64,000 bases of DNA from Escherichia coli (GTDB lineage: Bacteria > Pseudomonadota > Gammaproteobacteria > Enterobacterales > Enterobacteriaceae), in assembly GCF_050920415.1 (NCBI RefSeq), contig NZ_CP169309.1. One strand, 5' to 3'. The notes below the pieces were generated by a model that saw only the letters and a list, made by a program, of their open reading frames with translations, had not been told where the DNA came from and did no database searches. This document shows positions 8,554 to 64,000 of the stretch, piece by piece. Both the position numbers and the translations under genes were made by a program. The first letter of the stretch is position 1. The number at the start of each line of letters is the position of its first letter.

Positions 8554-8629
8554 GCCCGGATAGCTCAGTCGGTAGAGCAGGGGATTGAAAATCCCCGTGT
8601 CCTTGGTTCGATTCCGAGTCCGGGCACCA
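8554..8629 (+). tRNA. pheU: tRNA-Phe (anticodon GAA)
   Basis: Exact match to E. coli tRNA-Phe: GCCCGGATAGCTCAGTCGGTAGAGCAGGGGATTGAAAATCCCCGTGTCCTTGGTTCGATTCCGAGTCCGGGCACCA. Confidence 0.97.
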
Positions 8630-8638
8630 AATTCATAT

Positions 8639-8667
8639 AAACGGACCTCCACGGAGGTCCGTTTTTC
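8639..8667 (+). terminator. Rho-independent terminator downstream of pheU
   Basis: Perfect hairpin aaacggacctcc / ggaggtccgttt followed by TTTTT. Confidence 0.7.
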
Positions 8668-8670
8668 GTT

Positions 8671-8946
8671 TCAGGACGCCATGTGATTTAAGCGTTCTGC
8701 CTTCAAATCATTTCTAACAATCTCAACCAAATTTTCCCACATCGCCAGCATGTTGCGGGTATACCCCAGCTCTGGGAAATTTATCCCTAAGCTATGAATG
8801 ACTCTCACGAAATGTCGTGCGGCTGCGTGATGCAGTTGAAAATCAAATGATGTCATCAAGAGCTTAACGGTATCGTTGCCGATGACATATATAAAGCACA
8901 ACCTCGGGCAGAACGCCGACTGATGAGATTTTCTGAATGAGAACAA
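8671..8946 (-). pseudogene. Remnant of a P4-family phage integrase (C-terminal fragment) next to the tRNA-Phe 3' end
   Basis: 91-codon ORF whose C-terminus (...RNMLAMWENLVEIVRNDLKAE) resembles the conserved C-terminal tail of P4-like tyrosine integrases; no full-length integrase frame present; location at a tRNA 3' end. Confidence 0.5.
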
Positions 8947-9260
8947 AGAGAAATGTATCAGTCCGCTTGCTCATGCAAAGACTAACAATCCATAAAAATA
9001 GTAAGCGCGCCGGGCAATTTCCCATGGATTATTTTCTGAACATTTTTCTTTGGCAAAGATGATGAATTTTGATGATAAGGAATATTACTTCTGGTTCTCA
9101 GTAAAATCCTTTCGTAATACTATGTAATCAAGAAGTTTATGGCTGGTAAAAATAACGTCTTGCATTCACCAATTATATGTAAATAAAACCATCTATAGAT
9201 GGTAAAAATAGGTTGTGGCAATTATCATTGAACCATTCCCTTTTCGAATGAGTTTCTATT

Positions 9261-10799
9261 ATGCAACAACCTGTAGTTCGCGTTGGCGAATGGCTTGTTA
9301 CTCCGTCCATAAACCAAATTAGTCGCAATGGGCGTCAACTTACCCTTGAGCCGAGATTAATCGATCTTCTGGTTTTCTTTGCTCAACACAGTGGCGAAGT
9401 ACTTAGCAGGGATGAACTTATCGATAATGTCTGGAAGAGAAGTATTGTCACCAATCACGTTGTGACGCAGAGTATCTCAGAACTACGTAAGTCATTAAAA
9501 GATAATGATGAAGATAGTCCTGTCTATATCGCTACTGTACCAAAGCGCGGCTATAAATTAATGGTGCCGGTTATCTGGTACAGCGAAGAAGAGGGAGAGG
9601 AAATAATGCTATCTTCGCCTCCCCCTATACCAGAGGCGGTTCCTGACACAGATTCTCCCTCCCAAAGTCTTAACATTCAAAGCACCGCAACACCACCTGA
9701 ACAATCCCCAGTTAAAAGCAAACGATTCACTACCTTTTGGGTATGGTTTTTTTTCCTGTTGTCGTTAGGTATCTGTGTAGCACTGGTAGCGTTTTCAAGT
9801 CTTGATACACGTCTTCCTATGAGCAAATCGCGTATTTTGCTCAATCCACGCGATATTGACATTAATATGGTAAATAAAAGTTGTAACAGCTGGAGTTCCC
9901 CGTATCAGCTCTCTTACGCGATAGGCGTGGGTGATTTGGTGGCGACATCACTTAACACCTTCTCCACCTTTATGGTGCATGACAAAATCAACTACAACAT
10001 TGATGAACCGAGCAGTTCCGGTAAAACATTATCTATTGCGTTTGTTAATCAGCGCCAATACCGTGCTCAACAATGCTTTATGTCGGTAAAATTGGTAGAC
10101 AATGCAGATGGTTCAACCATGCTGGATAAACGTTATGTCATCACTAACGGTAATCAGCTGGCGATTCAAAATGATTTACTGGAGAGTTTATCAAAAGCGT
10201 TAAACCAACCGTGGCCACAACGAATGCAGGAGATGCTCCAGCAAATTTTGCCGCATCGTGGTGCGTTATTAACTAATTTTTATCAGGCTCATGATTATTT
10301 ACTGCATGGCGATGATAAATCATTGAACCGTGCCAGTGAATTACTAGGTGAGATTGTTCAATCATCCCCCGAATTTACCTACGCGAGAGCAGAAAAAGCA
10401 TTAGTTGATATCGTGCGCCATTCTCAACATCCTTTAGATGAAAAACAATTAGCAGCACTGAATACAGAAATAGATAACATTGTTACACTGCCGGAATTGA
10501 ACAACCTGTCCATTATATATCAAATAAAAGCGGTCAGTGCTCTGGTAAAAGGTAAAACAGATGAGTCTTACCAGGCGATAAATACTGGCATTGATCTTGA
10601 AATGTCCTGGCTAAATTATGTGTTGCTTGGCAAGGTTTATGAAATGAAGGGGATGAACCGGGAAGCAGCTGATGCATATCTCACCGCCTTTAATTTACGC
10701 CCAGGGGCAAACACCCTTTACTGGATTGAAAATGGTATATTCCAGACTTCTGTTCCTTATGTTGTACCTTATCTCGACAAATTTCTCGCCTCAGAATAA
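9261..10799 (+). CDS. cadC: ToxR-like membrane-integrated pH-responsive activator CadC (512 aa)
   Basis: MQQPVVRVGEWLVTPSINQISRNGRQLTLEPRLIDLLVFF... winged-helix N-terminus, single TM segment, periplasmic sensor domain. Confidence 0.95.
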   Translation: MQQPVVRVGEWLVTPSINQISRNGRQLTLEPRLIDLLVFFAQHSGEVLSRDELIDNVWKRSIVTNHVVTQSISELRKSLKDNDEDSPVYIATVPKRGYKLMVPVIWYSEEEGEEIMLSSPPPIPEAVPDTDSPSQSLNIQSTATPPEQSPVKSKRFTTFWVWFFFLLSLGICVALVAFSSLDTRLPMSKSRILLNPRDIDINMVNKSCNSWSSPYQLSYAIGVGDLVATSLNTFSTFMVHDKINYNIDEPSSSGKTLSIAFVNQRQYRAQQCFMSVKLVDNADGSTMLDKRYVITNGNQLAIQNDLLESLSKALNQPWPQRMQEMLQQILPHRGALLTNFYQAHDYLLHGDDKSLNRASELLGEIVQSSPEFTYARAEKALVDIVRHSQHPLDEKQLAALNTEIDNIVTLPELNNLSIIYQIKAVSALVKGKTDESYQAINTGIDLEMSWLNYVLLGKVYEMKGMNREAADAYLTAFNLRPGANTLYWIENGIFQTSVPYVVPYLDKFLASE

Positions 10800-10867
10800 G
10801 TGACTCCCGGGTTGACTCATGCTCGGGAATATTTGTTGTTGATTTTTTGTATGTTATTGTTGATATA

Positions 10868-10902
10868 ATATGTTGCGGCAATTTATTTGCCGCATATTTT
10901 TT
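10868..10902 (+). terminator. Rho-independent terminator after cadC
   Basis: Hairpin atatgttgcggcaa / ttgccgcatat followed by a T-run. Confidence 0.55.
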
Positions 10903-10919
10903 ATAACAGAAATTTAACC

Positions 10920-11130
10920 GAAAAACATCTCTTAATTCATTGTAAATATTGAATGTTTATCTTTTCATGATATCAACTTGCGATCCTGATGTGTTAATAA
11001 AAAACCTCAAGTTCTCACTTACAGAAACTTTTGTGTTATTTCACCTAATCTTTAGGATTAATCTTTTTTTTTGAGTAATCTTGTCGCCAGTTTGGTCTGG
11101 TCAGTAAATAGTTACGCATCATGACCCGGA
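10920..11130 (+). promoter_or_regulatory. Pcad promoter / CadC-binding region upstream of cadBA
   Basis: AT-rich non-coding region upstream of cadB; established position of CadC sites for the cadBA operon; exact site boundaries not resolved from sequence. Confidence 0.45.
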
Positions 11131-11163
11131 CTCCAAATTCAAAAATGAAATTAGGAGAAGAGC

Positions 11164-12498
11164 ATGAGTTCTGCCAAGAAGATCGGGCTATTTGCCTGTA
11201 CCGGTGTTGTTGCCGGTAATATGATGGGGAGCGGCATTGCATTATTGCCTGCGAACCTTGCAAGTATCGGTGGTATTGCTATCTGGGGTTGGATTATCTC
11301 TATTATTGGTGCAATGTCGTTGGCTTATGTATATGCCCGACTGGCAACAAAAAACCCGCAACAAGGTGGCCCAATTGCTTATGCCGGAGAAATTTCTCCT
11401 GCATTTGGTTTTCAGACAGGTGTTCTTTATTACCATGCTAACTGGATTGGTAACCTGGCGATTGGTATTACCGCTGTATCTTATCTTTCCACCTTCTTCC
11501 CTGTATTAAATGATCCTGTTCCGGCGGGTATCGCTTGTATTGCTATCGTCTGGGTATTTACCTTTGTAAATATGCTCGGCGGTACCTGGGTAAGCCGTTT
11601 AACCACTATTGGTCTGGTGCTGGTTCTTATTCCTGTAGTTATGACTGCTATTGTTGGCTGGCATTGGTTTGATGCTGCAACTTATGCTGCTAACTGGAAT
11701 ACCGCAGGTACTACTGATGGTCATGCGATCATTAAAAGTATTCTGCTCTGCCTGTGGGCCTTCGTGGGTGTTGAATCCGCAGCGGTAAGTACTGGTATGG
11801 TTAAAAACCCGAAACGTACCGTTCCGCTGGCAACCATGCTGGGTACTGGTTTAGCAGGTATTGTTTACATCGCTGCGACTCAGGTGCTTTCCGGTATGTA
11901 TCCGTCTTCTGTAATGGCAGGCTCCGGTGCTCCGTTTGCAATCAGTGCTTCTACTATCCTGGGTAACTGGGCTGCGCCGATGGTTTCTGCATTCACCGCT
12001 TTTGCGTGCCTGACTTCTCTGGGTTCCTGGATGATGCTGGTAGGTCAGGCAGGTGTGCGTGCCGCTAACGACGGTAACTTCCCGAAAGTTTATGGTGAAG
12101 TCGACAGCAACGGTATTCCGAAAAAAGGTCTGCTGCTGGCTGCAGTGAAAATGACTGCCCTGATGATCCTCATCACTCTGATGAACTCTGCCGGTGGTAA
12201 AGCATCTGACCTGTTCGGTGAACTGACCGGTATCGCAGTACTGCTGACTATGCTGCCGTACTTCTACTCTTGCGTTGACCTGATTCGTTTTGAAGGCGTT
12301 AACATCCGCAACTTTGTCAGCCTGATCTGCTCTGTACTGGGTTGCGTGTTCTGCTTCATCGCGCTGATGGGCGCAAGCTCCTTCGAGCTGGCAGGTACCT
12401 TCATCGTCAGCCTGATTATCCTGATGTTCTACGCTCGCAAAATGCACGAGCGCCAGAGCCACTCAATGGATAACCACACAGCGTCTAACGCACATTAA
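11164..12498 (+). CDS. cadB: Lysine:cadaverine antiporter CadB (444 aa)
   Basis: APC-family membrane ORF MSSAKKIGLFACTGVVAGNMMGSGIALLPANLA...; immediately upstream of cadA. Confidence 0.95.
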   Translation: MSSAKKIGLFACTGVVAGNMMGSGIALLPANLASIGGIAIWGWIISIIGAMSLAYVYARLATKNPQQGGPIAYAGEISPAFGFQTGVLYYHANWIGNLAIGITAVSYLSTFFPVLNDPVPAGIACIAIVWVFTFVNMLGGTWVSRLTTIGLVLVLIPVVMTAIVGWHWFDAATYAANWNTAGTTDGHAIIKSILLCLWAFVGVESAAVSTGMVKNPKRTVPLATMLGTGLAGIVYIAATQVLSGMYPSSVMAGSGAPFAISASTILGNWAAPMVSAFTAFACLTSLGSWMMLVGQAGVRAANDGNFPKVYGEVDSNGIPKKGLLLAAVKMTALMILITLMNSAGGKASDLFGELTGIAVLLTMLPYFYSCVDLIRFEGVNIRNFVSLICSVLGCVFCFIALMGASSFELAGTFIVSLIILMFYARKMHERQSHSMDNHTASNAH

Positions 12499-12577
12499 TT
12501 AAAAGTATTTTCCGAGGCTCCTCCTTTCATTTTGTCCCATGTGTTGGGAGGGGCCTTTTTTACCTGGAGATATGACT

Positions 12578-14725
12578 ATGAACGTTATTGCAATATTGAA
12601 TCACATGGGGGTTTATTTTAAAGAAGAACCCATCCGTGAACTTCATCGCGCGCTTGAACGTCTGAACTTCCAGATTGTTTACCCGAATGACCGTGACGAC
12701 TTATTAAAACTGATCGAAAACAATGCGCGTCTGTGCGGTGTTATTTTTGACTGGGATAAATATAATCTCGAGCTGTGCGAAGAAATTAGCAAAATGAACG
12801 AGAACCTGCCGTTGTACGCGTTCGCTAATACGTATTCCACTCTCGATGTCAGCCTGAATGACCTGCGTTTACAGATTAGCTTCTTTGAATATGCGCTGGG
12901 TGCTGCTGATGATATTGCTAACAAGATCAAGCAGACCACTGACGAATATATCAACACTATTCTGCCTCCGCTGACCAAAGCACTGTTTAAATATGTTCGT
13001 GAAGGTAAATATACTTTCTGTACTCCTGGTCACATGGGCGGTACTGCATTCCAGAAAAGCCCGGTAGGTAGCCTGTTCTATGATTTCTTTGGTCCGAACA
13101 CCATGAAATCTGATATTTCCATTTCAGTATCTGAATTGGGTTCTCTGCTGGATCACAGCGGTCCGCACAAAGAAGCAGAACAGTATATCGCTCGCGTATT
13201 TAACGCAGACCGCAGCTACATGGTGACCAACGGTACTTCCACTGCGAACAAAATTGTTGGTATGTACTCTGCTCCGGCAGGCAGCACCATTCTGATTGAC
13301 CGTAACTGCCACAAATCGCTGACCCACCTGATGATGATGAGCGATGTTACGCCAATCTATTTCCGCCCGACCCGTAACGCTTACGGTATTCTTGGTGGTA
13401 TCCCACAGAGTGAATTCCAGCACGCTACCATTGCTAAGCGCGTAAAAGAAACACCAAACGCGACCTGGCCGGTACATGCCGTAATTACTAACTCTACCTA
13501 TGATGGCCTGCTGTACAACACCGACTTCATCAAGAAAACACTGGATGTAAAATCCATCCACTTTGACTCCGCGTGGGTGCCTTACACCAACTTCTCACCG
13601 ATTTACGAAGGTAAATGCGGTATGAGCGGTGGCCGTGTAGAAGGGAAAGTGATTTACGAAACCCAGTCTACTCACAAACTGCTGGCGGCGTTCTCTCAGG
13701 CTTCCATGATCCACGTTAAAGGTGATGTAAACGAAGAAACCTTTAACGAAGCCTACATGATGCACACCACCACTTCTCCGCACTACGGTATCGTGGCGTC
13801 CACTGAAACCGCTGCGGCGATGATGAAAGGTAATGCTGGTAAGCGTCTGATCAACGGTTCCATTGAACGTGCGATCAAGTTCCGTAAAGAGATCAAACGC
13901 CTGAGAACGGAATCTGATGGCTGGTTCTTTGATGTATGGCAGCCGGATCATATCGATACCACTGAATGCTGGCCGCTGCGTTCTGACAGCTCCTGGCACG
14001 GCTTCAAGAACATCGACAATGAGCACATGTATCTTGACCCGATCAAAGTCACCCTGCTGACCCCGGGGATGGAAAAAGACGGCACCATGAGCGACTTTGG
14101 TATTCCGGCCAGCATCGTGGCGAAATACCTCGACGAACATGGCATCGTTGTTGAGAAAACCGGCCCGTATAACCTGCTGTTCCTGTTCAGCATCGGTATT
14201 GATAAGACCAAAGCATTGAGCCTGCTGCGTGCTCTGACTGACTTCAAACGTGCGTTCGACCTGAACCTGCGTGTGAAAAACATGCTGCCGTCTCTGTATC
14301 GTGAAGATCCTGAATTCTATGAAGATATGCGTATTCAGGAACTGGCTCAGAATATCCACAAACTGATTGTTCACCACAATCTGCCGGATCTGATGTATCG
14401 CGCATTTGAAGTGCTGCCGACAATGGTAATGACTCCGTATGCTGCGTTCCAGAAAGAGCTGCACGGTATGACCGAAGAAGTTTACCTCGACGAAATGGTA
14501 GGTCGTATTAACGCCAATATGATCCTTCCGTATCCGCCGGGAGTTCCTCTGGTAATGCCGGGTGAAATGATCACCGAAGAAAGCCGTCCGGTGCTGGAGT
14601 TCCTGCAGATGCTGTGTGAAATCGGCGCTCACTATCCGGGCTTTGAAACCGATATTCACGGTGCATACCGTCAGGCTGATGGTCGCTATACCGTTAAGGT
14701 ATTGAAAGAAGAAAGCAAAAAATAA
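12578..14725 (+). CDS. cadA: Inducible lysine decarboxylase CadA (715 aa)
   Basis: MNVIAILNHMGVYFKEEPIRELHRALERLNFQIVYPNDRDD...; Orn/Lys/Arg decarboxylase fold with STHKLL PLP-lysine motif; start at ATG 12578 within ORF 12539-14725. Confidence 0.96.
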   Translation: MNVIAILNHMGVYFKEEPIRELHRALERLNFQIVYPNDRDDLLKLIENNARLCGVIFDWDKYNLELCEEISKMNENLPLYAFANTYSTLDVSLNDLRLQISFFEYALGAADDIANKIKQTTDEYINTILPPLTKALFKYVREGKYTFCTPGHMGGTAFQKSPVGSLFYDFFGPNTMKSDISISVSELGSLLDHSGPHKEAEQYIARVFNADRSYMVTNGTSTANKIVGMYSAPAGSTILIDRNCHKSLTHLMMMSDVTPIYFRPTRNAYGILGGIPQSEFQHATIAKRVKETPNATWPVHAVITNSTYDGLLYNTDFIKKTLDVKSIHFDSAWVPYTNFSPIYEGKCGMSGGRVEGKVIYETQSTHKLLAAFSQASMIHVKGDVNEETFNEAYMMHTTTSPHYGIVASTETAAAMMKGNAGKRLINGSIERAIKFRKEIKRLRTESDGWFFDVWQPDHIDTTECWPLRSDSSWHGFKNIDNEHMYLDPIKVTLLTPGMEKDGTMSDFGIPASIVAKYLDEHGIVVEKTGPYNLLFLFSIGIDKTKALSLLRALTDFKRAFDLNLRVKNMLPSLYREDPEFYEDMRIQELAQNIHKLIVHHNLPDLMYRAFEVLPTMVMTPYAAFQKELHGMTEEVYLDEMVGRINANMILPYPPGVPLVMPGEMITEESRPVLEFLQMLCEIGAHYPGFETDIHGAYRQADGRYTVKVLKEESKK

Positions 14726-21167: not shown

Positions 21168-21883
21168 TCAATGTATTAATTATTGATGACGACGCAATGG
21201 TCGCGGAGCTGAATCGTCGATACGTGGCACAAATCCCAGGCTTTCAATGCTGTGGAACGGCCTCGACGCTGGAGAAAGCCAAAGAGATTATCTTCAATAG
21301 CGATACGCCTATCGACCTGATATTGCTCGATATCTATATGCAAAAAGAGAACGGGCTCGATTTACTGCCTGTTCTGCATAATGCGCGTTGCAAAAGTGAT
21401 GTGATTGTTATCTCTTCCGCTGCCGATGCCGCAACCATTAAAGATTCGCTGCATTACGGAGTCGTGGATTACCTGATCAAACCCTTCCAGGCTACCCGCT
21501 TTGAAGAGGCGCTCACCGGCTGGCGGCAAAAGAAAATGGCGCTGGAAAAACATCAGTATTATGACCAGGCCGAGCTTGATCAGCTAATCCACGGCAGCAG
21601 CTCCAACGAGCAGGATCCTCGTCGCTTGCCAAAAGGCTTAACACCACAGACGTTACGCACGCTGTGCCAGTGGATTGACGCGCATCAGGACTATGAGTTT
21701 TCAACCGACGAGCTGGCTAATGAGGTTAACATCTCGCGTGTTTCCTGCCGTAAATATCTCATCTGGCTGGTCAACTGCCACATCTTGTTCACCAGTATCC
21801 ATTATGGCGTCACAGGTCGTCCGGTTTATCGTTATCGTATTCAGGCAGAACATTACTCACTACTTAAACAATATTGCCAATAA
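21164..21883 (+). CDS. dcuR: Response regulator DcuR (239 aa)
   Basis: Receiver domain (MINVLIIDDDAMV...DLILLDIYM) plus C-terminal HTH; translationally coupled to dcuS. Confidence 0.93.
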   Translation: MINVLIIDDDAMVAELNRRYVAQIPGFQCCGTASTLEKAKEIIFNSDTPIDLILLDIYMQKENGLDLLPVLHNARCKSDVIVISSAADAATIKDSLHYGVVDYLIKPFQATRFEEALTGWRQKKMALEKHQYYDQAELDQLIHGSSSNEQDPRRLPKGLTPQTLRTLCQWIDAHQDYEFSTDELANEVNISRVSCRKYLIWLVNCHILFTSIHYGVTGRPVYRYRIQAEHYSLLKQYCQ

Positions 21884-22451
21884 CGATCACGGTTATCTGT
21901 AAGTAATAATTATTACAGTAATGCAAAATACCCCTGGCACAAGTTACATCGTTCATCAGTAAAACTTGTGCCAGATCAAATATAATTCCCCCTCTCTCAC
22001 CGCTGAAAATTAATATCTCTTCGGATGAACGGTGTTTTTAATTTCAAAACGCTAACAAAAGTTAATTAACTATTATGTCGCCCACATTATGTGTATTTTT
22101 ACCCACAAATGGGTAGTTAAGAATAATCTATAAACCTGATGATACCTACCCTGAGAACAAAAATTATACCAATAAGTATCAATAAGATAGCAGCAAACAA
22201 AACATTAACATCTGCGTAGTACAAACTATAAACCCATCGCCAGAGAGTATTTCTCTCTGAAAAAACCGCTTATCACAGTGCATAAATTTGCCGCTGCTTT
22301 AATCAGCCAATATTCACTGTGAGGTATTTACTCAAGCCGGTAACGACCAAACGGATATTTAGTCAAGCTCTGAAAACAGTTCATACAAAACAGAACGTGA
22401 CTGTGATCTATTCAGCAAAAATTTAAATAGGATTATCGCGAGGGTTTACAC
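21884..22451 (+). promoter_or_regulatory. dcuB promoter and long untranslated leader
   Basis: About 570 bp AT-rich non-coding region between dcuR and dcuB; established site of DcuR/FNR control; individual sites not resolved. Confidence 0.4.
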
Positions 22452-25638: not shown

Positions 25639-26289
25639 ATGACCCGCACACTCAAGCCGTTAATTCTTAACACCGGCGCACTGGCGCTAACGTTAATCCT
25701 GATTTATACCGGCATTTCGGCCAATGACAAACTCACCTGGCTGATGGAAGTGACACCGGTGATTATTGTCGTGCCGCTACTGCTTGCCACCGCTAAACGT
25801 TATCCGTTAACGCCGCTGCTCTATACGCTCATTTTCTTTCACGCCATCATCCTGATGGTCGGCGGGCAATACACCTACGCGAAAGTCCCCGTTGGTTTTG
25901 AGGTGCAGGAATGGCTGGGGTTGAGCCGTAATCCGTATGACAAGCTGGGGCATTTTTTCCAGGGGCTGGTGCCTGCACTGGTGGCGCGAGAAATTCTCGT
26001 TCGCGGGATGTACGTGCGCGGACGTAAAATGGTGGCGTTTCTGGTCTGCTGCGTGGCGCTGGCGATAAGCGCGATGTATGAATTAATCGAGTGGTGGGCA
26101 GCGCTGGCAATGGGTCAGGGAGCGGATGATTTTCTCGGTACCCAGGGCGACCAATGGGACACACAATCCGATATGTTCTGCGCGCTGCTTGGTGCATTAA
26201 CTACGGTGATATTCCTTGCTCGCTTTCATTGCCGCCAGCTACGGCGCTATGGCTTAATCACCAGAGCGCCGGAAGCGATTACCTCTTAA
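25639..26289 (+). CDS. yjdF: Inner-membrane protein YjdF (DUF2238-like)
   Basis: Multi-TM ORF in the conserved position next to fumB; stop TAA at 26287-26289 overlaps the melA stop. Confidence 0.7.
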   Translation: MTRTLKPLILNTGALALTLILIYTGISANDKLTWLMEVTPVIIVVPLLLATAKRYPLTPLLYTLIFFHAIILMVGGQYTYAKVPVGFEVQEWLGLSRNPYDKLGHFFQGLVPALVAREILVRGMYVRGRKMVAFLVCCVALAISAMYELIEWWAALAMGQGADDFLGTQGDQWDTQSDMFCALLGALTTVIFLARFHCRQLRRYGLITRAPEAITS

Positions 26290-28832: not shown

Positions 28833-29027
28833 AGACGATATCAGTATCAGCCAAAAAAATAGTTTAGCCGTCGATAATAAGCAGTGAAAATAAATCAAAA
28901 TAATCACATAACATATTGTTTATAAAAATGAATATTTAAAAAATGTTTGTTTTTCATGCGCTTTACAGCCCGAAAAGGCCGGAAGATACTTGCCCGCAAC
29001 GAAGATTCCTTCATAACCGGGTAAGCA

Positions 29028-31298
29028 ATGATGAAAGTATTAATTGTTGAAAGCGAGTTTCTCCATCAGGACACCTGGGTCGGTAACGCCGTTGAGCGTC
29101 TGGCAGGGGCTTTAAGCCAGCAAAATGTTACCGTGATTAAATCCACCTCCTTTGATGATGGCTTTGCCATTCTCTCTTCAAACGAAGCCATTGACTGCCT
29201 GATGTTCAGCTATCAAATGGAACATCCGGACGAACATCAAAACGTCAGACAATTGATCGGTAAGCTTCATGAGCGCCAACAAAACGTGCCGGTCTTCCTG
29301 TTGGGCGATCGGGAAAAAGCCCTCGCCGCAATGGACCGAGATCTGCTGGAGCTTGTCGATGAATTCGCCTGGATTCTGGAAGATACCGCCGACTTTATCG
29401 CCGGACGCGCCGTTGCCGCAATGACCCGCTACCGCCAGCAGCTGTTGCCGCCACTGTTCAGCGCGCTGATGAAATATAGCGACATCCATGAATATTCCTG
29501 GGCAGCGCCAGGCCACCAGGGCGGCGTTGGCTTTACCAAAACACCCGCCGGACGTTTCTACCATGACTACTATGGTGAAAATCTGTTCCGCACCGACATG
29601 GGCATCGAACGGACTTCCCTCGGTTCTTTGCTTGACCATACTGGCGCATTTGGCGAAAGCGAAAAATATGCCGCACGCGTATTTGGTGCCGATCGCTCCT
29701 GGTCGGTAGTCGTCGGTACTTCCGGCTCTAACCGTACCATCATGCAGGCTTGCATGACCGATAACGATGTAGTGGTCGTTGACCGTAACTGCCATAAATC
29801 CATCGAACAAGGCTTGATGCTGACAGGCGCGAAACCGGTCTACATGGTGCCAAGCCGCAACCGCTACGGCATTATCGGGCCAATTTATCCGCAGGAAATG
29901 CAACCTGAAACCTTGCAGAAGAAAATCAGTGAAAGCCCGCTGACCAAAGACAAAGTCGGGCAAAAACCGTCTTACTGCGTGGTGACCAACTGCACCTATG
30001 ACGGCGTGTGTTATAACGCTAAAGAAGCGCAGGATCTGCTGGAAAAAACTTCCGATCGTCTGCACTTTGACGAAGCCTGGTACGGCTATGCACGTTTCAA
30101 CCCGATCTATGCCGATCACTATGCCATGCACGGTGAACCTGGCGATCACAACGGTCCTACCGTTTTCGCCACCCACTCAACCCACAAACTGCTGAATGCG
30201 CTGTCACAGGCCTCTTACATTCATGTGCGTGAAGGTCGTGGGGCGATTAACTTCTCCCGCTTTAATCAGGCATACATGATGCATGCCACCACCTCCCCGC
30301 TGTATGCCATCTGTGCATCTAACGACGTGGCGGTGTCGATGATGGACGGCAACAGTGGCCTGTCACTGACCCAGGAAGTGATCGACGAAGCGGTTGATTT
30401 CCGTCAAGCGATGGCACGGCTGTATAAAGAGTTCACCCATGACGGTAGCTGGTTCTTCAAACCGTGGAACAAAGAAGTGGTCACCGATCCACAAACCGGC
30501 AAAACCTACGACTTTGCTGACGCGCCAACCAAACTGCTGACCACCGTTCAGGATTGCTGGGTAATGCATCCGGGCGAAAGCTGGCACGGCTTCAAAGATA
30601 TTCCGGATAACTGGAGTATGCTCGACCCAATTAAAGTCAGCATTCTCGCACCGGGAATGGGTGAAGATGGTGAACTGGAAGAAACCGGTGTTCCGGCGGC
30701 GCTGGTCACAGCCTGGCTTGGTCGCCACGGCATTGTGCCTACCCGTACCACTGACTTCCAAATTATGTTCCTGTTCTCTATGGGCGTGACCCGTGGGAAA
30801 TGGGGAACTCTGGTTAACACCCTTTGCTCCTTCAAACGCCACTATGATGCCAACACACCGCTGGCGCAGGTGATGCCGGAACTTGTTGAACAATATCCTG
30901 ACACTTACGCGAACATGGGGATTCACGATCTGGGTGACACCATGTTTGCCTGGCTGAAAGAAAACAACCCTGGCGCACGGTTGAACGAAGCCTATTCCGG
31001 CCTGCCGGTGGCGGAAATCACCCCGCGTGAAGCGTACAACGCAATTGTCGATAACAATGTCGAACTGGTATCCATTGAAAATCTGCCTGGACGCATCGCG
31101 GCAAACTCAGTTATCCCGTATCCGCCAGGAATCCCGATGCTACTGTCTGGTGAAAACTTCGGCGATAAAAACAGTCCACAGGTAAGTTATTTACGCTCCC
31201 TGCAATCCTGGGACCATCATTTCCCTGGATTTGAACACGAAACTGAAGGGACTGAAATTATTGACGGTATTTACCACGTCATGTGTGTGAAAGCGTAA
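29028..31298 (+). CDS. adiA: Biodegradative (acid-inducible) arginine decarboxylase AdiA (~756 aa)
   Basis: Paralogue of cadA in this window (shared fold, STHKLL PLP motif); MMKVLIVESEFLHQDTWVGNAVERLA...; linked to adiY-adiC. Confidence 0.95.
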   Translation: MMKVLIVESEFLHQDTWVGNAVERLAGALSQQNVTVIKSTSFDDGFAILSSNEAIDCLMFSYQMEHPDEHQNVRQLIGKLHERQQNVPVFLLGDREKALAAMDRDLLELVDEFAWILEDTADFIAGRAVAAMTRYRQQLLPPLFSALMKYSDIHEYSWAAPGHQGGVGFTKTPAGRFYHDYYGENLFRTDMGIERTSLGSLLDHTGAFGESEKYAARVFGADRSWSVVVGTSGSNRTIMQACMTDNDVVVVDRNCHKSIEQGLMLTGAKPVYMVPSRNRYGIIGPIYPQEMQPETLQKKISESPLTKDKVGQKPSYCVVTNCTYDGVCYNAKEAQDLLEKTSDRLHFDEAWYGYARFNPIYADHYAMHGEPGDHNGPTVFATHSTHKLLNALSQASYIHVREGRGAINFSRFNQAYMMHATTSPLYAICASNDVAVSMMDGNSGLSLTQEVIDEAVDFRQAMARLYKEFTHDGSWFFKPWNKEVVTDPQTGKTYDFADAPTKLLTTVQDCWVMHPGESWHGFKDIPDNWSMLDPIKVSILAPGMGEDGELEETGVPAALVTAWLGRHGIVPTRTTDFQIMFLFSMGVTRGKWGTLVNTLCSFKRHYDANTPLAQVMPELVEQYPDTYANMGIHDLGDTMFAWLKENNPGARLNEAYSGLPVAEITPREAYNAIVDNNVELVSIENLPGRIAANSVIPYPPGIPMLLSGENFGDKNSPQVSYLRSLQSWDHHFPGFEHETEGTEIIDGIYHVMCVKA

Positions 31299-31621: not shown

Positions 31622-32383
31622 ATGAGGATTTGCAGCGACCAACCTTGTATTGTTTTATTGACTGAAAAAGATGTCTGGATAAGGGTGAATGGGAAAGAAC
31701 CTATTAGCCTTAAAGCTAACCATATGGCGTTATTAAATTGTGAAAATAATATTATCGACGTCTCCTCTCTTAATAACACTTTGGTTGCTCATATTAGTCA
31801 CGACATCATCAAAGATTACCTCCGGTTTCTGAATAAAGATCTCTCGCAAATACCAGTATGGCAACGTAGTGCTACGCCCATCCTCACCCTGCCATGCCTG
31901 ACGCCAGACGTCTTTCGCGTTGCCGCGCAACATAGCATGATGCCCGCTGAAACTGAGTCAGAAAAGGAACGAACACGTGCATTATTATTCACTGTGCTAT
32001 CCCGTTTTCTCGACAGTAAAAAATTCCTTTCATTAATGATGTATATGTTACGTAATTGTGTAAGTGACAGCGTTTATCAAATTATTGAAAGCGATATCCA
32101 CAAAGACTGGAATCTTAGTATGGTAGCCAGTTGTTTATGTCTTAGCCCAAGTCTGTTAAAGAAAAAGCTGAAAAGCGAAAACACCAGTTATAGCCAAATA
32201 ATCACCACCTGCCGCATGCGTTATGCCGTCAATGAATTAATGATGGACGGTAAAAATATCTCTCAGGTCTCACAATCGTGTGGCTACAACAGTACGTCGT
32301 ACTTTATTTCTGTCTTTAAAGACTTCTACGGTATGACGCCTCTGCATTATGTTAGTCAGCACAGAGAACGCACTGTCGCCTGA
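31622..32383 (+). CDS. adiY: AraC-family regulator AdiY (253 aa)
   Basis: AraC-type HTH in C-terminal half; located between adiA and adiC. Confidence 0.85.
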   Translation: MRICSDQPCIVLLTEKDVWIRVNGKEPISLKANHMALLNCENNIIDVSSLNNTLVAHISHDIIKDYLRFLNKDLSQIPVWQRSATPILTLPCLTPDVFRVAAQHSMMPAETESEKERTRALLFTVLSRFLDSKKFLSLMMYMLRNCVSDSVYQIIESDIHKDWNLSMVASCLCLSPSLLKKKLKSENTSYSQIITTCRMRYAVNELMMDGKNISQVSQSCGYNSTSYFISVFKDFYGMTPLHYVSQHRERTVA

Positions 32384-32519
32384 TTTTTAACCTTAACGAA
32401 GAGCTATATTAATAACGGCATCAGCGATAACCCGGTCGATAATAATTCAACTATCGAATGCAGGCGTATGATATGACGTAATTTATTGTCACGAAGCTCG
32501 CCTTCGCAGGAGTTTAATT

Positions 32520-33857
32520 ATGTCTTCGGATGCTGATGCTCACAAAGTGGGCTTAATCCCCGTCACCCTGATGGTGTCGGGGAATATTATGGGGTCAGGT
32601 GTTTTTCTGTTACCTGCAAACCTGGCCTCCACTGGCGGGATTGCCATTTATGGATGGTTGGTGACGATTATCGGTGCGCTGGGGCTCTCGATGGTATACG
32701 CCAAAATGTCGTTCCTCGACCCAAGTCCTGGTGGTTCTTACGCTTACGCCCGCCGCTGCTTTGGCCCGTTTCTCGGTTATCAAACCAACGTCCTCTACTG
32801 GCTGGCCTGCTGGATCGGCAATATCGCCATGGTGGTCATTGGCGTTGGATATTTAAGTTACTTCTTCCCGATTCTGAAAGATCCACTGGTATTAACCATC
32901 ACCTGCGTCGTGGTGCTGTGGATCTTCGTCCTGCTGAACATTGTCGGTCCGAAAATGATCACCCGCGTGCAGGCCGTTGCCACCGTGCTGGCGCTGATCC
33001 CCATCGTCGGGATTGCCGTATTTGGCTGGTTCTGGTTCCGTGGTGAAACCTATATGGCGGCATGGAACGTCAGCGGCCTGGGCACCTTCGGCGCGATTCA
33101 AAGTACCCTTAACGTTACGCTGTGGTCGTTCATCGGTGTGGAAAGTGCCTCCGTTGCCGCAGGTGTGGTGAAAAACCCGAAACGCAACGTCCCTATCGCC
33201 ACCATTGGTGGGGTATTGATTGCCGCCGTTTGCTATGTGCTCTCCACCACCGCGATTATGGGGATGATCCCTAATGCCGCACTGCGCGTTTCTGCCTCGC
33301 CATTCGGTGATGCCGCACGGATGGCGTTGGGTGACACCGCCGGGGCCATTGTTTCCTTCTGCGCAGCTGCGGGTTGCTTAGGTTCACTGGGCGGCTGGAC
33401 GTTGCTGGCGGGTCAAACGGCGAAAGCCGCTGCCGATGACGGACTGTTCCCACCGATTTTTGCCCGTGTAAATAAAGCGGGTACGCCAGTGGCAGGGCTG
33501 ATTATCGTCGGTATTTTGATGACCATCTTCCAGCTCAGTAGCATTTCGCCAAACGCGACTAAAGAGTTCGGTCTGGTTTCTTCCGTGTCGGTCATCTTTA
33601 CACTGGTGCCATATCTTTACACCTGTGCGGCGTTACTGCTGCTCGGCCACGGCCACTTTGGTAAAGCACGCCCTGCATATCTGGCTGTTACTACCATTGC
33701 CTTCCTCTACTGCATCTGGGCCGTAGTAGGGTCCGGCGCGAAAGAGGTTATGTGGTCATTTGTCACCCTGATGGTCATCACCGCCATGTATGCGCTGAAT
33801 TACAACCGGCTGCATAAAAACCCGTATCCCTTAGATGCACCAATAAGCAAAGATTAA
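32520..33857 (+). CDS. adiC: Arginine:agmatine antiporter AdiC (445 aa)
   Basis: APC-family transporter, paralogue of cadB in this window (shared motif [13 protein letters not shown]). Confidence 0.93.
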
Positions 33858-36278: not shown

Positions 36279-37370
36279 ATGCGTTTTCTGCGCCGACCAA
36301 TATCGCTGCGCCAACGGCTGATATTGACCATTGGGGCCATTTTGTTGGTGTTTGAGTTGATCAGCGTCTTCTGGCTATGGCATGAAAGTACCGAGCAGAT
36401 TCAGCTGTTTGAGCAGGCGCTACGCGACAATCGTAACAACGATCGCCACATCATGCGTGAGATCCGCGAGGCGGTCGCCAGCCTGATTGTCCCTGGCGTC
36501 TTTATGGTCAGCCTGACGCTATTTATCTGCTATCAGGCGGTACGCCGCATCACCCGCCCGCTGGCGGAGCTGCAAAAAGAGCTGGAAGCGCGCACCGCCG
36601 ACAACTTAACGCCCATTGCCATTCACAGCGCCACCCTCGAAATCGAAGCGGTGGTTTCAGCGTTAAACGATCTGGTCAGTCGCCTGACCAACACGCTGGA
36701 TAACGAAAGGTTGTTTACCGCTGACGTCGCGCACGAACTGCGAACGCCACTGGCGGGGGTGCGTTTGCATCTGGAACTGCTGGCGAAAACGCATCACATT
36801 GATGTAGCACCGTTAGTGGCACGACTTGATCAGATGATGGAGAGTGTCTCCCAGCTACTGCAACTGGCGCGTGCCGGACAGTCATTTTCTTCCGGTAATT
36901 ATCAACATGTAAAACTGCTGGAAGATGTCATTCTCCCCTCGTATGACGAACTCAGTACCATGCTCGACCAGCGCCAGCAAACCCTGCTATTGCCAGAGAG
37001 CGCCGCCGACATCATCGTTCAGGGTGATGCAACCCTGCTGCGGATGTTATTGCGAAACCTGGTAGAAAATGCCCATCGTTACAGCCCGCAAGGCAGCAAC
37101 ATTATGATTAAGCTGCAAGACGATGGCGGAGCGGTCATGGCCGTTGAAGATGAAGGACCGGGTATTGATGAGAGTAAATGCGGGGAGTTGAGTAAAGCGT
37201 TTGTACGAATGGACAGCCGTTATGGCGGGATTGGTCTGGGGTTAAGTATTGTCAGCCGCATTACACAGTTGCATCACGGGCAGTTTTTCCTGCAAAACCG
37301 GCAAGAGACTTCCGGCACGCGGGCCTGGGTACGGCTGAAGAAAGATCAGTACGTGGCAAACCAGATATAA
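36279..37370 (+). CDS. basS: Sensor histidine kinase BasS/PmrB (363 aa)
   Basis: HisKA (DVAHELRTPLAG) and HATPase domains; ATG at 36279; ORF track begins three codons earlier (36270). Confidence 0.9.
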   Translation: MRFLRRPISLRQRLILTIGAILLVFELISVFWLWHESTEQIQLFEQALRDNRNNDRHIMREIREAVASLIVPGVFMVSLTLFICYQAVRRITRPLAELQKELEARTADNLTPIAIHSATLEIEAVVSALNDLVSRLTNTLDNERLFTADVAHELRTPLAGVRLHLELLAKTHHIDVAPLVARLDQMMESVSQLLQLARAGQSFSSGNYQHVKLLEDVILPSYDELSTMLDQRQQTLLLPESAADIIVQGDATLLRMLLRNLVENAHRYSPQGSNIMIKLQDDGGAVMAVEDEGPGIDESKCGELSKAFVRMDSRYGGIGLGLSIVSRITQLHHGQFFLQNRQETSGTRAWVRLKKDQYVANQI

Positions 37371-37439
37371 AGAAAGCTGCTGACCACCAGCACGCTGAAC
37401 ACGGTAGTTAAACTTTCATAAACACGGTTTTTCATTGCA

Positions 37440-37465
37440 CTCTCCTCCGTTAACCTGGAGGAGAG
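37440..37465. terminator. Stem-loop between convergent basS and proP
   Basis: Inverted repeat ctcctcc / ggaggag between convergent 3' ends. Confidence 0.45.
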
Positions 37466-37548
37466 TATGCGTGTCAGAGATTAAGTGAACCTTAAGAGTC
37501 AATTGTTGGCCTGATGAGACAGCATCCCATCAGGCAATTCGTTTCAGC

Positions 37549-43187: not shown

Positions 43188-43335
43188 CGGTAGGCCGGAT
43201 AAGGCGCTCGCGCCGCATCCGGCTACGGTGCCGACTGCCTGATGCGACGCTCGCGCGTCTTATCAGGCCTACAAATTCTCGCACCATCCGGCAACGGTGC
43301 CTAATGCGACGCTTACCGAGTCTTATCAGCCCCCG
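43188..43335. repeat. REP / BIME cluster (about three REP units in alternating orientation)
   Basis: Units gtaggccggataaggcgctcgcgccgcatccggc, gcctgatgcgacgctcgcgcgtcttatcaggcctac and a third partial unit match the E. coli REP consensus. Confidence 0.75.
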
Positions 43336-63105: not shown

Positions 63106-64000
63106 ATGAAAAAAGTCGTCACGGTTTGCCCCTATTGCGCATCAGGTTGCAAAATCAACCTGGTCGTCGATAACGGCAAAATCGTCCGGGCGGAGGCAGC
63201 GCAGGGGAAAACCAACCAGGGTACCCTGTGTCTGAAGGGTTATTATGGCTGGGACTTCATTAACGATACCCAGATCCTGACCCCGCGCCTGAAAACCCCC
63301 ATGATCCGTCGCCAGCGTGGCGGCAAACTCGAACCTGTTTCCTGGGATGAGGCACTGAATTACGTTGCCGAGCGCCTGAGCGCCATCAAAGAGAAGTACG
63401 GTCCGGATGCCATCCAGACGACCGGCTCCTCGCGTGGTACGGGTAACGAAACCAACTATGTAATGCAAAAATTTGCGCGCGCCGTTATTGGTACCAATAA
63501 CGTTGACTGCTGCGCTCGTGTCTGACACGGCCCATCGGTTGCAGGTCTGCACCAATCGGTCGGTAATGGCGCAATGAGCAATGCTATTAACGAAATTGAT
63601 AATACCGATTTAGTGTTCGTTTTCGGGTACAACCCGGCGGATTCCCACCCTATCGTGGCGAATCACGTAATTAACGCTAAACGTAACGGGGCGAAAATTA
63701 TCGTCTGCGATCCGCGCAAAATTGAAACCGCGCGCATTGCTGACATGCACATTGCACTGAAAAACGGCTCGAATATCGCGCTGTTGAATGCGATGGGCCA
63801 TGTCATTATTGAAGAAAATCTGTACGACAAAGCGTTCGTCGCTTCCCGTACAGAAGGCTTTGAAGAGTATCGTAAAATCGTTGAAGGCTACACGCCGGAG
63901 TCGGTTGAAGATATCACCGGCGTTAGCGCCAGTGAGATTCGTCAGGCAGCGCGGATGTATGCCCAGGCGGAAAGCGCAGCCATTCTGTGGGGCATGGGTG
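63106..64000 (+). CDS. fdhF: Formate dehydrogenase H selenoprotein FdhF, 5' portion (truncated by window end); codon 140 is an in-frame TGA read as selenocysteine
   Basis: MKKVVTVCPYCASGCKINLVVDNGKIVRAEAAQGKTNQGTLCLKGYYGWDF... molybdopterin oxidoreductase N-terminus; frame continues unbroken after TGA at 63523-63525 to the window end (HGPSVAGLHQSVGNGAMSNAINEIDNTDLVFVFGYNPADSHPIV...). Confidence 0.93.
63526..63570 (+). other. SECIS stem-loop directing selenocysteine insertion at the fdhF UGA
   Basis: Immediately 3' of the TGA: cacggcccatcggttgcaggtctgcaccaatcggtcggtaatggc, matching the recalled fdhF SECIS hairpin. Confidence 0.8.

Follow-up and report, generated by a model that had tools for sequence, protein, structure and literature searches.

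Pcad, the cadC-cadBA control region of Escherichia coli, and its relation to the nearby adi acid-resistance genes

Positions 10800-11163 of the window, by which we mean the whole 64-kb stretch of Escherichia coli DNA analysed here, are exactly the 364-bp intergenic region between cadC, whose open reading frame ends at 10799, and cadB, which starts at 11164. We regard it as practically certain that this region is Pcad, the cadC-cadBA control region of the E. coli chromosome, and no evidence contrary to that identity was found. Pcad of E. coli has been characterised experimentally (PMC5430869, PMC6320335). The genes of the window follow the order groES-...-aspA-dcuA-cutA-dsbD-dicD-pheU-cadC-cadB-cadA-dtpC-lysU-...-dcuSR-dcuB-fumB-yjdF-melA-melR-adiA-adiY-adiC-eptA-basRS-...-phn-...-mdtNOP-fdhF, in an orientation that is the reverse complement of K-12. 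Strain MFDS1022581 matches the window at 99.99% identity except for an IS2 that this strain carries, and in the 28 kb that were compared, identity to K-12 is about 97.2%. At least 80% of 10700-11300 is present in 5198 of 5426 complete E. coli genomes, where it is annotated as lying between cadC and cadB, with one copy of the Pcad region per genome. The identities that a sequence-only reading of this DNA had given to the six cad and adi genes were confirmed, and all six are intact. The features of the two modules are as follows.

9261-10799, plus strand: cadC, membrane-integrated ToxR-type activator of 512 aa (NCBIfam NF007540 equivalog, Pfam)
10805-10828, plus strand: hairpin 1, terminator-like, with a weak, interrupted T tail (folding, -14.2 kcal/mol, z = -2.1)
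10874-10903, plus strand: hairpin 2 (stem 10874-10894) and its T-run, most likely the cadC intrinsic terminator (folding, conservation)
10920-10939, no strand assigned: hypervariable spacer of 20 bp adjoining Cad1 on its upstream side, conserved in length and not in sequence (17-allele alignment)
10940-10980, plus strand: Cad1, CadC-binding 41-mer (match to the published K-12 41-mer)
10943-10959, plus strand: quasi-palindromic 17-mer within Cad1, here TAAATATTGAATGTTTA
11004-11034, plus strand: Cad2, second CadC site, putative position (published -89 to -59, counted from the probable start site)
11053-11092, plus strand: putative core promoter (published numbering of the Cad1 41-mer)
11093-11163, plus strand: cadB 5' untranslated region with Shine-Dalgarno AGGAG at 11153-11157 (read from the sequence)
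11164-12498, plus strand: cadB, lysine/cadaverine antiporter of 444 aa (NF007754 equivalog)
12578-14725, plus strand: cadA, inducible lysine decarboxylase of 715 aa (NF011929)
28833-29027, plus strand: adiA promoter region (melR-adiA intergenic), AT-rich (G+C 0.338)
29028-31298, plus strand: adiA, biodegradative arginine decarboxylase (NF011603 equivalog)
31622-32383, plus strand: adiY, AraC-type activator (Pfam HTH_AraC, HTH_18)
32520-33857, plus strand: adiC, arginine/agmatine antiporter (NF007929 equivalog)

CadC, CadB, CadA, AdiA and AdiC all score above the cutoffs, equivalog or subfamily, that NCBIfam sets for their families. CadC reaches 753.9 bits against NF007540 (cutoff 400, residues 1-509) and carries the Pfam domains Trans_reg_C (24-100) and CadC_C1 (191-324), so that its description as a ToxR-like regulator holds in the sense of a membrane protein with a ToxR-type winged helix. 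Its translation shows a PPPIP polyproline stretch and a hydrophobic transmembrane segment, FTTFWVWFFFLLSLGICVALVAF, and none of its six substitutions relative to K-12 falls in the DNA-binding domain. The co-sensor of CadC is LysP. Directly downstream of cadC lie cadB and then cadA, in the order and with the spacing of K-12. CadB (916.3 bits against a cutoff of 585) and CadA (1627 bits, cutoff 1056, aligned at 14-727) differ from K-12 by 3 substitutions each. The mechanical open reading frame of cadA begins at 12539, and since the family model aligns only from residue 14, the true start is 12578. On the adi side, AdiA matches its equivalog over the full length (1700 bits, cutoff 1167), and AdiC (892 bits, cutoff 574) is identical to K-12 AdiC. 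AdiY has no NCBIfam model of its own, its best NCBIfam match being GadX, below the cutoff of that model. Its assignment as an AraC-like regulator is borne out by the HTH_AraC and HTH_18 domains and by identity to K-12 AdiY at 252 of 253 residues, with V136L as the sole substitution. His34 and His60, recently reported as the AdiY pH sensor, are both present, and binding of AdiY to PadiA and PadiC in vitro was described in the same work (bioRxiv 10.1101/2025.10.03.680266).

The AT-richness that had been noted for both modules is confirmed. Pcad has a G+C content of 0.324 (32.4%) against 0.514 (51.4%) for the whole 64-kb window, and its AT-richness is equalled or exceeded in just 0.46% of all 364-bp windows. 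Similar values hold for the adi intergenic regions: 0.338 for melR-adiA, 0.359 for adiA-adiY and 0.382 for adiY-adiC. Promoter fragments of cadBA, cadC and adiY are preferentially bound by H-NS in vitro (PMC2984483), which offers one and the same reason why both modules are AT-rich. The statement that cad and adi lie within 20 kb is approximate, as the distance is 14.3 kb from the cadA stop (14725) to the adiA start (29028) and 24.6 kb from the cadC start to the adiC stop.

The 5' end of Pcad had been described as carrying the cadC terminator hairpin. A hairpin beside the stop codon does exist: hairpin 1 begins 5 nt past the cadC stop and forms 8 pairs, a G-U pair included. However, a second hairpin at 10874-10894 is the stronger terminator candidate and the one conserved in evolution. 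Hairpin 1 fits the definition of an intrinsic terminator weakly and is only partly kept across Escherichia, several of its pairs being broken in outgroups. Hairpin 2 (TGCGGCAA-TTTAT-TTGCCGCA, then TATTTTTT) has an 8-bp stem and a 5-nt loop, with a folding energy of -13.4 kcal/mol (z = -3.7) that was equalled in 0 of 200 shuffles. It agrees with the definition of a rho-independent terminator, being a G+C-rich stem-loop with a U-tract directly after it, 3' of the stop codon and on the same strand. Ten sequences from four Escherichia species were aligned, seven of them E. coli alleles and three from other lineages of the genus; each retains all 8 pairs, and one compensatory change (G-C to A-U) occurs in E. 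whittamii. The terminator scan returned 2 terminator-like sites versus 0.6 in shuffles. Judged by folding and conservation, hairpin 2 is the likely main terminator of cadC.

The published K-12 Cad1 41-mer, TTGTAAACATTAAATGTTTATCTTTTCATGATATCAACTTG, is numbered -153 to -113 and was used for structural work on CadC bound to DNA (PMC5430869; Schlundt et al. 2017). By sequence comparison, the window's Cad1 can be matched to it at 39 of 41 positions, with 2 substitutions. The K-12 17-mer is a perfect palindrome, TAAACATTAAATGTTTA, whereas the 17-mer of the window reads TAAATATTGAATGTTTA. Its C-to-T state, at position 5, is found in 188 of 5203 genomes, Nissle 1917 included. The central G of the window is the majority E. 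coli state and also occurs in all other Escherichia sampled. The central A of K-12, which makes the palindrome perfect, is atypical: among the sampled sequences only the K-12-type allele (K-12 and NCTC9967) has it, and it was found in no Escherichia species besides E. coli. The published CadC contact consensus is 5'-TTA-N4-T-3', which would be expected twice and head to head in Cad1. In the window only the Cad1B copy is present (TTATCTTT, 10957-10964); the motif is absent from the Cad1A half-site because of the central A-to-G change. Since the central G is the majority state, the Cad1A copy is missing from most natural E. coli alleles. The Cad1 of the structural work, with its perfect palindrome and its Cad1A TTA-N4-T, is thus a minority allele. 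A motif search for CadC sites, which had been proposed as a check, did not serve with TTA-N4-T, as this motif is too degenerate and gave 481 matches in the window against 405 expected. The loss of the Cad1A copy from most alleles, together with the poor diagnostic value of the motif, therefore calls the consensus into question and not the membership of this locus in the Cad system. A single scan of genome contigs with an invariant 21-mer of Cad1 gave matches in Escherichia species only; conservation of Cad1 in Salmonella, Klebsiella and Vibrio has been reported (PMC5430869).

The start of cadBA transcription probably lies at about 11089-11092, 72 nt before the ATG, as counted from the Cad1 41-mer, whose ends are numbered -153 and -113 (PMC5430869); the published numbering behind this start and behind the -35 and -10 hexamers is internally inconsistent by about 6 nt. 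The probable -10 element is TAATCT at 11076-11081. A consensus promoter scan of the plus strand gave no good sigma-70 match here, which is to be expected because the cadBA promoter is activator-dependent. Folding of the cadB leader revealed no notable structure (z = -1.4). Cad2, which we take to lie at -89 to -59 (Kueper and Jung, 2005), is identical to K-12 in the window.

To describe conservation across the region, 17 E. coli alleles sampled across identity classes were aligned, and variable columns were counted for each segment.

10800-10828, hairpin 1 area: 7 of 29 columns variable
10829-10873, between the hairpins: 7 of 45
10874-10904, hairpin 2 and tail: 2 of 31
10905-10919, spacer: 4 of 15
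10920-10939, patch: 15 of 20
10940-10980, Cad1: 2 of 41
10981-11052, Cad2 area: 3 of 72
11053-11092, core promoter: 5 of 40
11093-11163, leader: 3 of 71

From Cad1 to the -35 region just 5 of 113 columns vary in the 17 alleles, and variation is high upstream of Cad1. The onset of constraint is therefore sharp and coincides exactly with the upstream border published for Cad1. The conserved block from Cad1 to the -35 region is also found in E. albertii, E. whittamii, Escherichia sp. MOD1-EC7003 and the divergent SCPM-O-B-8794, which is labelled E. coli.

The 20-bp patch next to Cad1, a hot spot of diversity throughout the species, has 12 haplotypes in the 17 alleles, with five multi-allelic columns and no indels, and its sequence is different in each of the Escherichia species sampled. 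A 19-kb alignment of the window with K-12 has its densest substitution-only 20-bp window here; the patch is 45-50% different from K-12 (9 of 20 positions in the densest 20-bp window). Against R32_14_1F, 11 of 20 patch positions differ and only 2 of 496 elsewhere. Mean pairwise diversity is 0.26 in the patch versus 0.017 in the other ~497 aligned positions, a factor of 15 that comes from a biased sample, the 17 alleles having been chosen by divergence in the patch stretch itself. In the neighbouring ends of cadC and cadB, variation at third codon positions is limited to 3 of 52 sites. When genomes were tallied without bias by how far they are from the most frequent haplotype over 10905-10990, 997 had at least 99% identity (essentially no mismatch), 3298 had 1-4 mismatches, 726 had 5-8 and 181 had 9 or more, and from this tally we roughly estimate a patch divergence of about 12-15%. 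Diversity is clearly elevated, yet it might be within reach of an unconstrained spacer between strongly constrained elements. Patch columns 4 and 8, which are 4 bp apart, show all four allele combinations with haplotypes read by eye, and this four-gamete violation suggests recurrent mutation. It is possible, though we consider it quite unlikely, that selection of a diversifying or recurrent kind, or local hypermutation, acts on the patch and so adjusts, from lineage to lineage, how far H-NS silences cadBA and CadC activates it, with the rare, outgroup-like Pcad allele conferring a different acid-response set point. Ongoing hypermutation was set aside, haplotypes being stable within lineages. 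An inversion or shufflon was likewise dismissed, the reverse complement of the window's patch being unlike the other haplotypes by eye.

That the Pcad allele of this lineage is rare raises the question of whether its C-to-T change in Cad1, shorter T-run and own patch alter cadBA expression or release it from CadC. Its core-promoter variant, AATCTTTTTTTTTGAG with a T9 run, is 1 nt shorter than AATCCTTTTTTCGTGAG of K-12, is accompanied by G11083 and T11105 and occurs in 18 of 5098 genomes; the missing nucleotide falls in the spacer of the putative -35 and -10 elements, the length of which matters. The Cad1 T allele is similarly uncommon (188 of 5203, as above), only 7 of 5008 genomes match the 80-nt stretch that includes the patch at 95% identity or more, and over 10700-11300 just 15 of 5214 genomes reach at least 99% identity while 5054 fall at 90-95%. 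Several of the core-promoter states are, however, common to E. albertii and other non-coli Escherichia, so that the variant looks ancestral-like or introgressed and not like damage. These states recur in other Escherichia, and the Cad1 T in Nissle 1917; they are therefore long-lived and presumably functional. In addition, cadC, cadB and cadA are intact and near-identical to K-12, which argues that the system is in use, and we consider altered regulation in this lineage unlikely. We consider it very improbable that the AT-rich 364 bp are not mainly a promoter and instead encode a small RNA, a small protein or what is left of a mobile element. Small RNAs are sometimes hidden in long AT-rich intergenic regions, and this one contains a perfect extended -10 (TGaTATAAT, 10861-10869) and a weak promoter-like site on the minus strand (10968-10939); a scan for promoter-like sites, however, gave 2 against 2.2 expected from shuffles, no Rfam family matches 10600-12700 at E <= 1 save a chance snoRNA match inside cadB, and a search of the whole 64-kb window at the Rfam gathering threshold found nothing in Pcad. 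Eight open reading frames of 21-72 aa overlap the region, but they run across the hypervariable patch or across conserved binding sites and lack coding-like conservation. As for mobility, an IS1 sits in the region in strain NCTC9967, but the region itself occurs once in each of the 5198 genomes and is therefore not mobile.

The relation between the cad and adi modules bears on a further alternative, namely that their proximity stems from a recent local (segmental) duplication that included regulatory DNA. The pairwise alignments that the sequence-only reading had called for support both paralogous pairs, with 36% identity for CadA and AdiA (E = 2e-162) and 38% for CadB and AdiC (E = 1e-109). 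The decarboxylases share Pfam OKR_DC_1_N, OKR_DC_1 and OKR_DC_1_C, and the antiporters share AA_permease_2. The modules are just 14.3 kb apart, the two pairs are clear paralogues of similar divergence, and CadB and AdiC are mutually nearest E. coli paralogues by HMM score, all of which would suit such an origin. A protein identity of 36-38% is nevertheless ancient, and CadA scores 1349 bits against the LdcC model and just 572 bits against that of AdiA, so that by HMM score its nearest paralogue family is LdcC and not AdiA. Gene order also differs, being regulator-antiporter-decarboxylase (cadC-cadB-cadA) in one module and decarboxylase-regulator-antiporter (adiA-adiY-adiC) in the other, and CadC and AdiY come from unrelated families. 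A comparison of five upstream regions found only chance 7-14-mers in common between the cad and adi promoters, the best cad-adi match being a 14-mer with E = 0.23. The best match among all five regions, an 11-mer between PadiA and PadiC (E = 0.058), is possibly an AdiY-related element. No second copy of the Cad1 17-mer exists in the 64-kb window with up to 3 mismatches allowed. In Salmonella LT2 the cad and adi clusters are far apart. Taxonomic ranges differ as well, CadB being common in Vibrionaceae and Aeromonadaceae and AdiY confined to Enterobacteriaceae; in the same study CadC is described as being without a second binding site, the coupling of Cad and Adi as indirect, through CadA activity, and their activation in single cells as mutually exclusive (PMC8989999). 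Clustering of CadC at Pcad as one chromosomal site has also been reported (PMC6320335). A recent tandem or segmental duplication would call for closer proteins, a common order, related regulators and similar promoters, none of which was found here, and we hold a recent local origin to be very improbable. The claim of a duplicated logic is sound for the decarboxylase/antiporter core, where it is ancient, but fails for the regulators, which are not homologous, and for gene order and promoters. On the sequence evidence, cad and adi are best described as an ancient decarboxylase/antiporter pair with independently wired regulation, not as a local duplication.

Taken together with the literature on CadC binding, H-NS silencing and induction conditions (PMC5430869, PMC6320335, PMC2984483), the elements of the region would work as follows. 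Transcription of cadC would end at one or both hairpins, with 10874-10894 and its T-run as the likely main terminator. A short, presumably unconstrained spacer 3' of the terminators would then be followed by the two CadC sites, Cad1 at 10940-10980 and Cad2 at about 11004-11034, a weak sigma-70 core promoter, a leader of roughly 72 nt and the cadB start codon. At neutral pH, H-NS is expected to silence the AT-rich Pcad DNA; at about pH 5.8 and in the presence of lysine, dimers of membrane-anchored CadC would bind to Cad1 and Cad2, driving out H-NS and bringing in RNA polymerase. CadB would import lysine and export cadaverine, and CadA would consume one proton per decarboxylation. The adiA-adiY-adiC genes would supply the paralogous enzyme and antiporter for arginine, switched by the unrelated, cytoplasmic AraC-type AdiY at lower pH.

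Both systems, Cad and Adi, are already known, as are their paralogy, the regulators of each and the architecture of Pcad, and all of this belongs to textbook E. coli physiology. The present analysis places the published Pcad elements on the window sequence at base resolution, and the only items that go slightly beyond the searchable literature are the allele survey, hairpin 2 as a conserved terminator and the hypervariable patch. Should the patch and the differences between alleles influence expression, which is speculative, they would show cis-regulatory tuning of an acid-stress response in nature.

Among known systems, the ToxR family (ToxR, TcpP, PsaE, WmpR) resembles CadC in the N-terminal OmpR-type winged helix, the single transmembrane segment and the periplasmic sensor domain; CadC differs in having its own periplasmic CadC_C1 domain and no ToxS-like partner gene adjoining cadC. 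LdcC, SpeF-PotE and the histidine decarboxylase-antiporter systems have a Pfam architecture in common with the cad and adi proteins, but they are absent from the window, and the cad and adi proteins score below their curated cutoffs. The adi genes of the window correspond to the E. coli Adi system (adiA-adiY-adiC, AR3), with adiY between adiA and adiC, three AT-rich upstream regions and nothing notable that differs; compared with cad, Adi has non-homologous regulation and a different gene order. The closest counterpart of the cad locus is the K-12 Cad system (cadC-cadBA, AR4). About 27 of the 364 intergenic positions differ from K-12, whereas K-12 has the same genes in the same order and in the same neighbourhood, pheU-cadC-cadB-cadA-dtpC-lysU, the proteins are 3-6 residues apart, Cad2, the leader and the Shine-Dalgarno sequence show few differences or none, and terminator hairpin 2 is unchanged.

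The perfect palindrome TAAACATTAAATGTTTA, which is the K-12 form of the 17-mer (10943-10959) inside Cad1, the published CadC-binding site, and the version used in published structural work on Cad1 (PMC5430869), is a minority allele. The majority of E. coli and every other Escherichia sampled have a central G in the 17-mer, which leaves the Cad1A half-site without the proposed TTA-N4-T contact motif. The 17-mer of the window has a further C-to-T at position 5, a state found in 188 of 5203 genomes, Nissle 1917 among them.

Within Pcad, the cadC-cadB control region, a 20-bp patch (10920-10939) adjoining Cad1 on its upstream side is a hot spot of diversity in E. coli. Among 17 E. coli alleles, 15 of the 20 columns are variable and 12 haplotypes occur without indels, whereas the flanks from Cad1 to cadB show almost no variation; the patch sequence also differs in each Escherichia species sampled. 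Selection, a mutational hot spot or absent constraint may each account for this diversity. E. coli Pcad sequence is also contained in a 643-nt contig with a coverage of 2, NZ_PJIO01000096.1, assigned to 'Arthrobacter sp. GMC3'. Its patch haplotype is that of BL21 and Res13, and the contig's Pcad is almost certainly E. coli contamination of that assembly.

The core-promoter allele of the window (11036-11100) is a rare one, present in 18 of 5098 genomes. Its T9 run falls 1 nt short of the K-12 length, it carries G11083 and T11105, and several of its states recur in E. albertii and in further Escherichia outside E. coli. The candidate -10 element is TAATCT in the window and in K-12, in contrast to TATTCT in the commonest allele. 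A separate, perfect extended -10 (TGaTATAAT, 10861-10869, + strand) lies directly 5′ of hairpin 2, the likely cadC terminator; it reads TGGTATAAT in most alleles and is kept in most of the Escherichia sampled, and it may be a chance product of AT-rich DNA. Within the operon, the RNA of the cadB-cadA intergenic region would fold into a strong hairpin with a T6 run behind it (GAGGCTCCTCC...GGGAGGGGCC, 12514-12561; -27.7 kcal/mol, z = -3.3). It may act as a partial terminator, or as an RNA-stabilizing or processing element that influences the CadB:CadA ratio.

In the arginine system, the upstream regions of adiA and adiC have an exact 11-mer in common (28870-28880 and 32435-32445), with E = 0.058 in a small comparison of upstream regions. 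Because both promoters are bound in vitro by the AraC-type activator AdiY (bioRxiv 10.1101/2025.10.03.680266), this shared sequence may belong to a site for AdiY.

Elsewhere in the window, the Rfam matches above the gathering score are as follows.

37339-37504, - strand, sRNA STnc630, adjoining pmrR/proP
43193-43269, + strand, nucleoid-associated naRNA4
63518-63572, + strand, SECIS element of fdhF

The melibiose permease gene melB is missing from the window. At the yjdF/melA junction (26266-26285), 20 nt stand in place of 1665 bp of K-12 sequence, and yjdF is lengthened to 216 aa and overlaps the melA stop. Among the 5426 complete genomes of E. coli, 1269 have the same junction, which makes this a common polymorphism. 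The stretch most divergent from K-12 (81-87% identity, with indels) is at 8600-9000, between the pheU tRNA gene and cadC, in an area that holds the yjdQ pseudogene and adjoins the integration hot spot at pheU. Divergence is also seen between dcuR and dcuB (21800-22200; 91-92%), an intergenic region that contains an IS2 in strain MFDS1022581.

E. coli NCTC9967 has an IS1 in Pcad directly downstream of Cad1, at the equivalent of window position ~10984, and the annotation of this strain gives cadC as a pseudogene interrupted by an internal stop. A truncated cadC is also found in strain 24A16CRGN010. NCTC9967 exemplifies what is already known of some lineages, namely that they have lost the Cad system.
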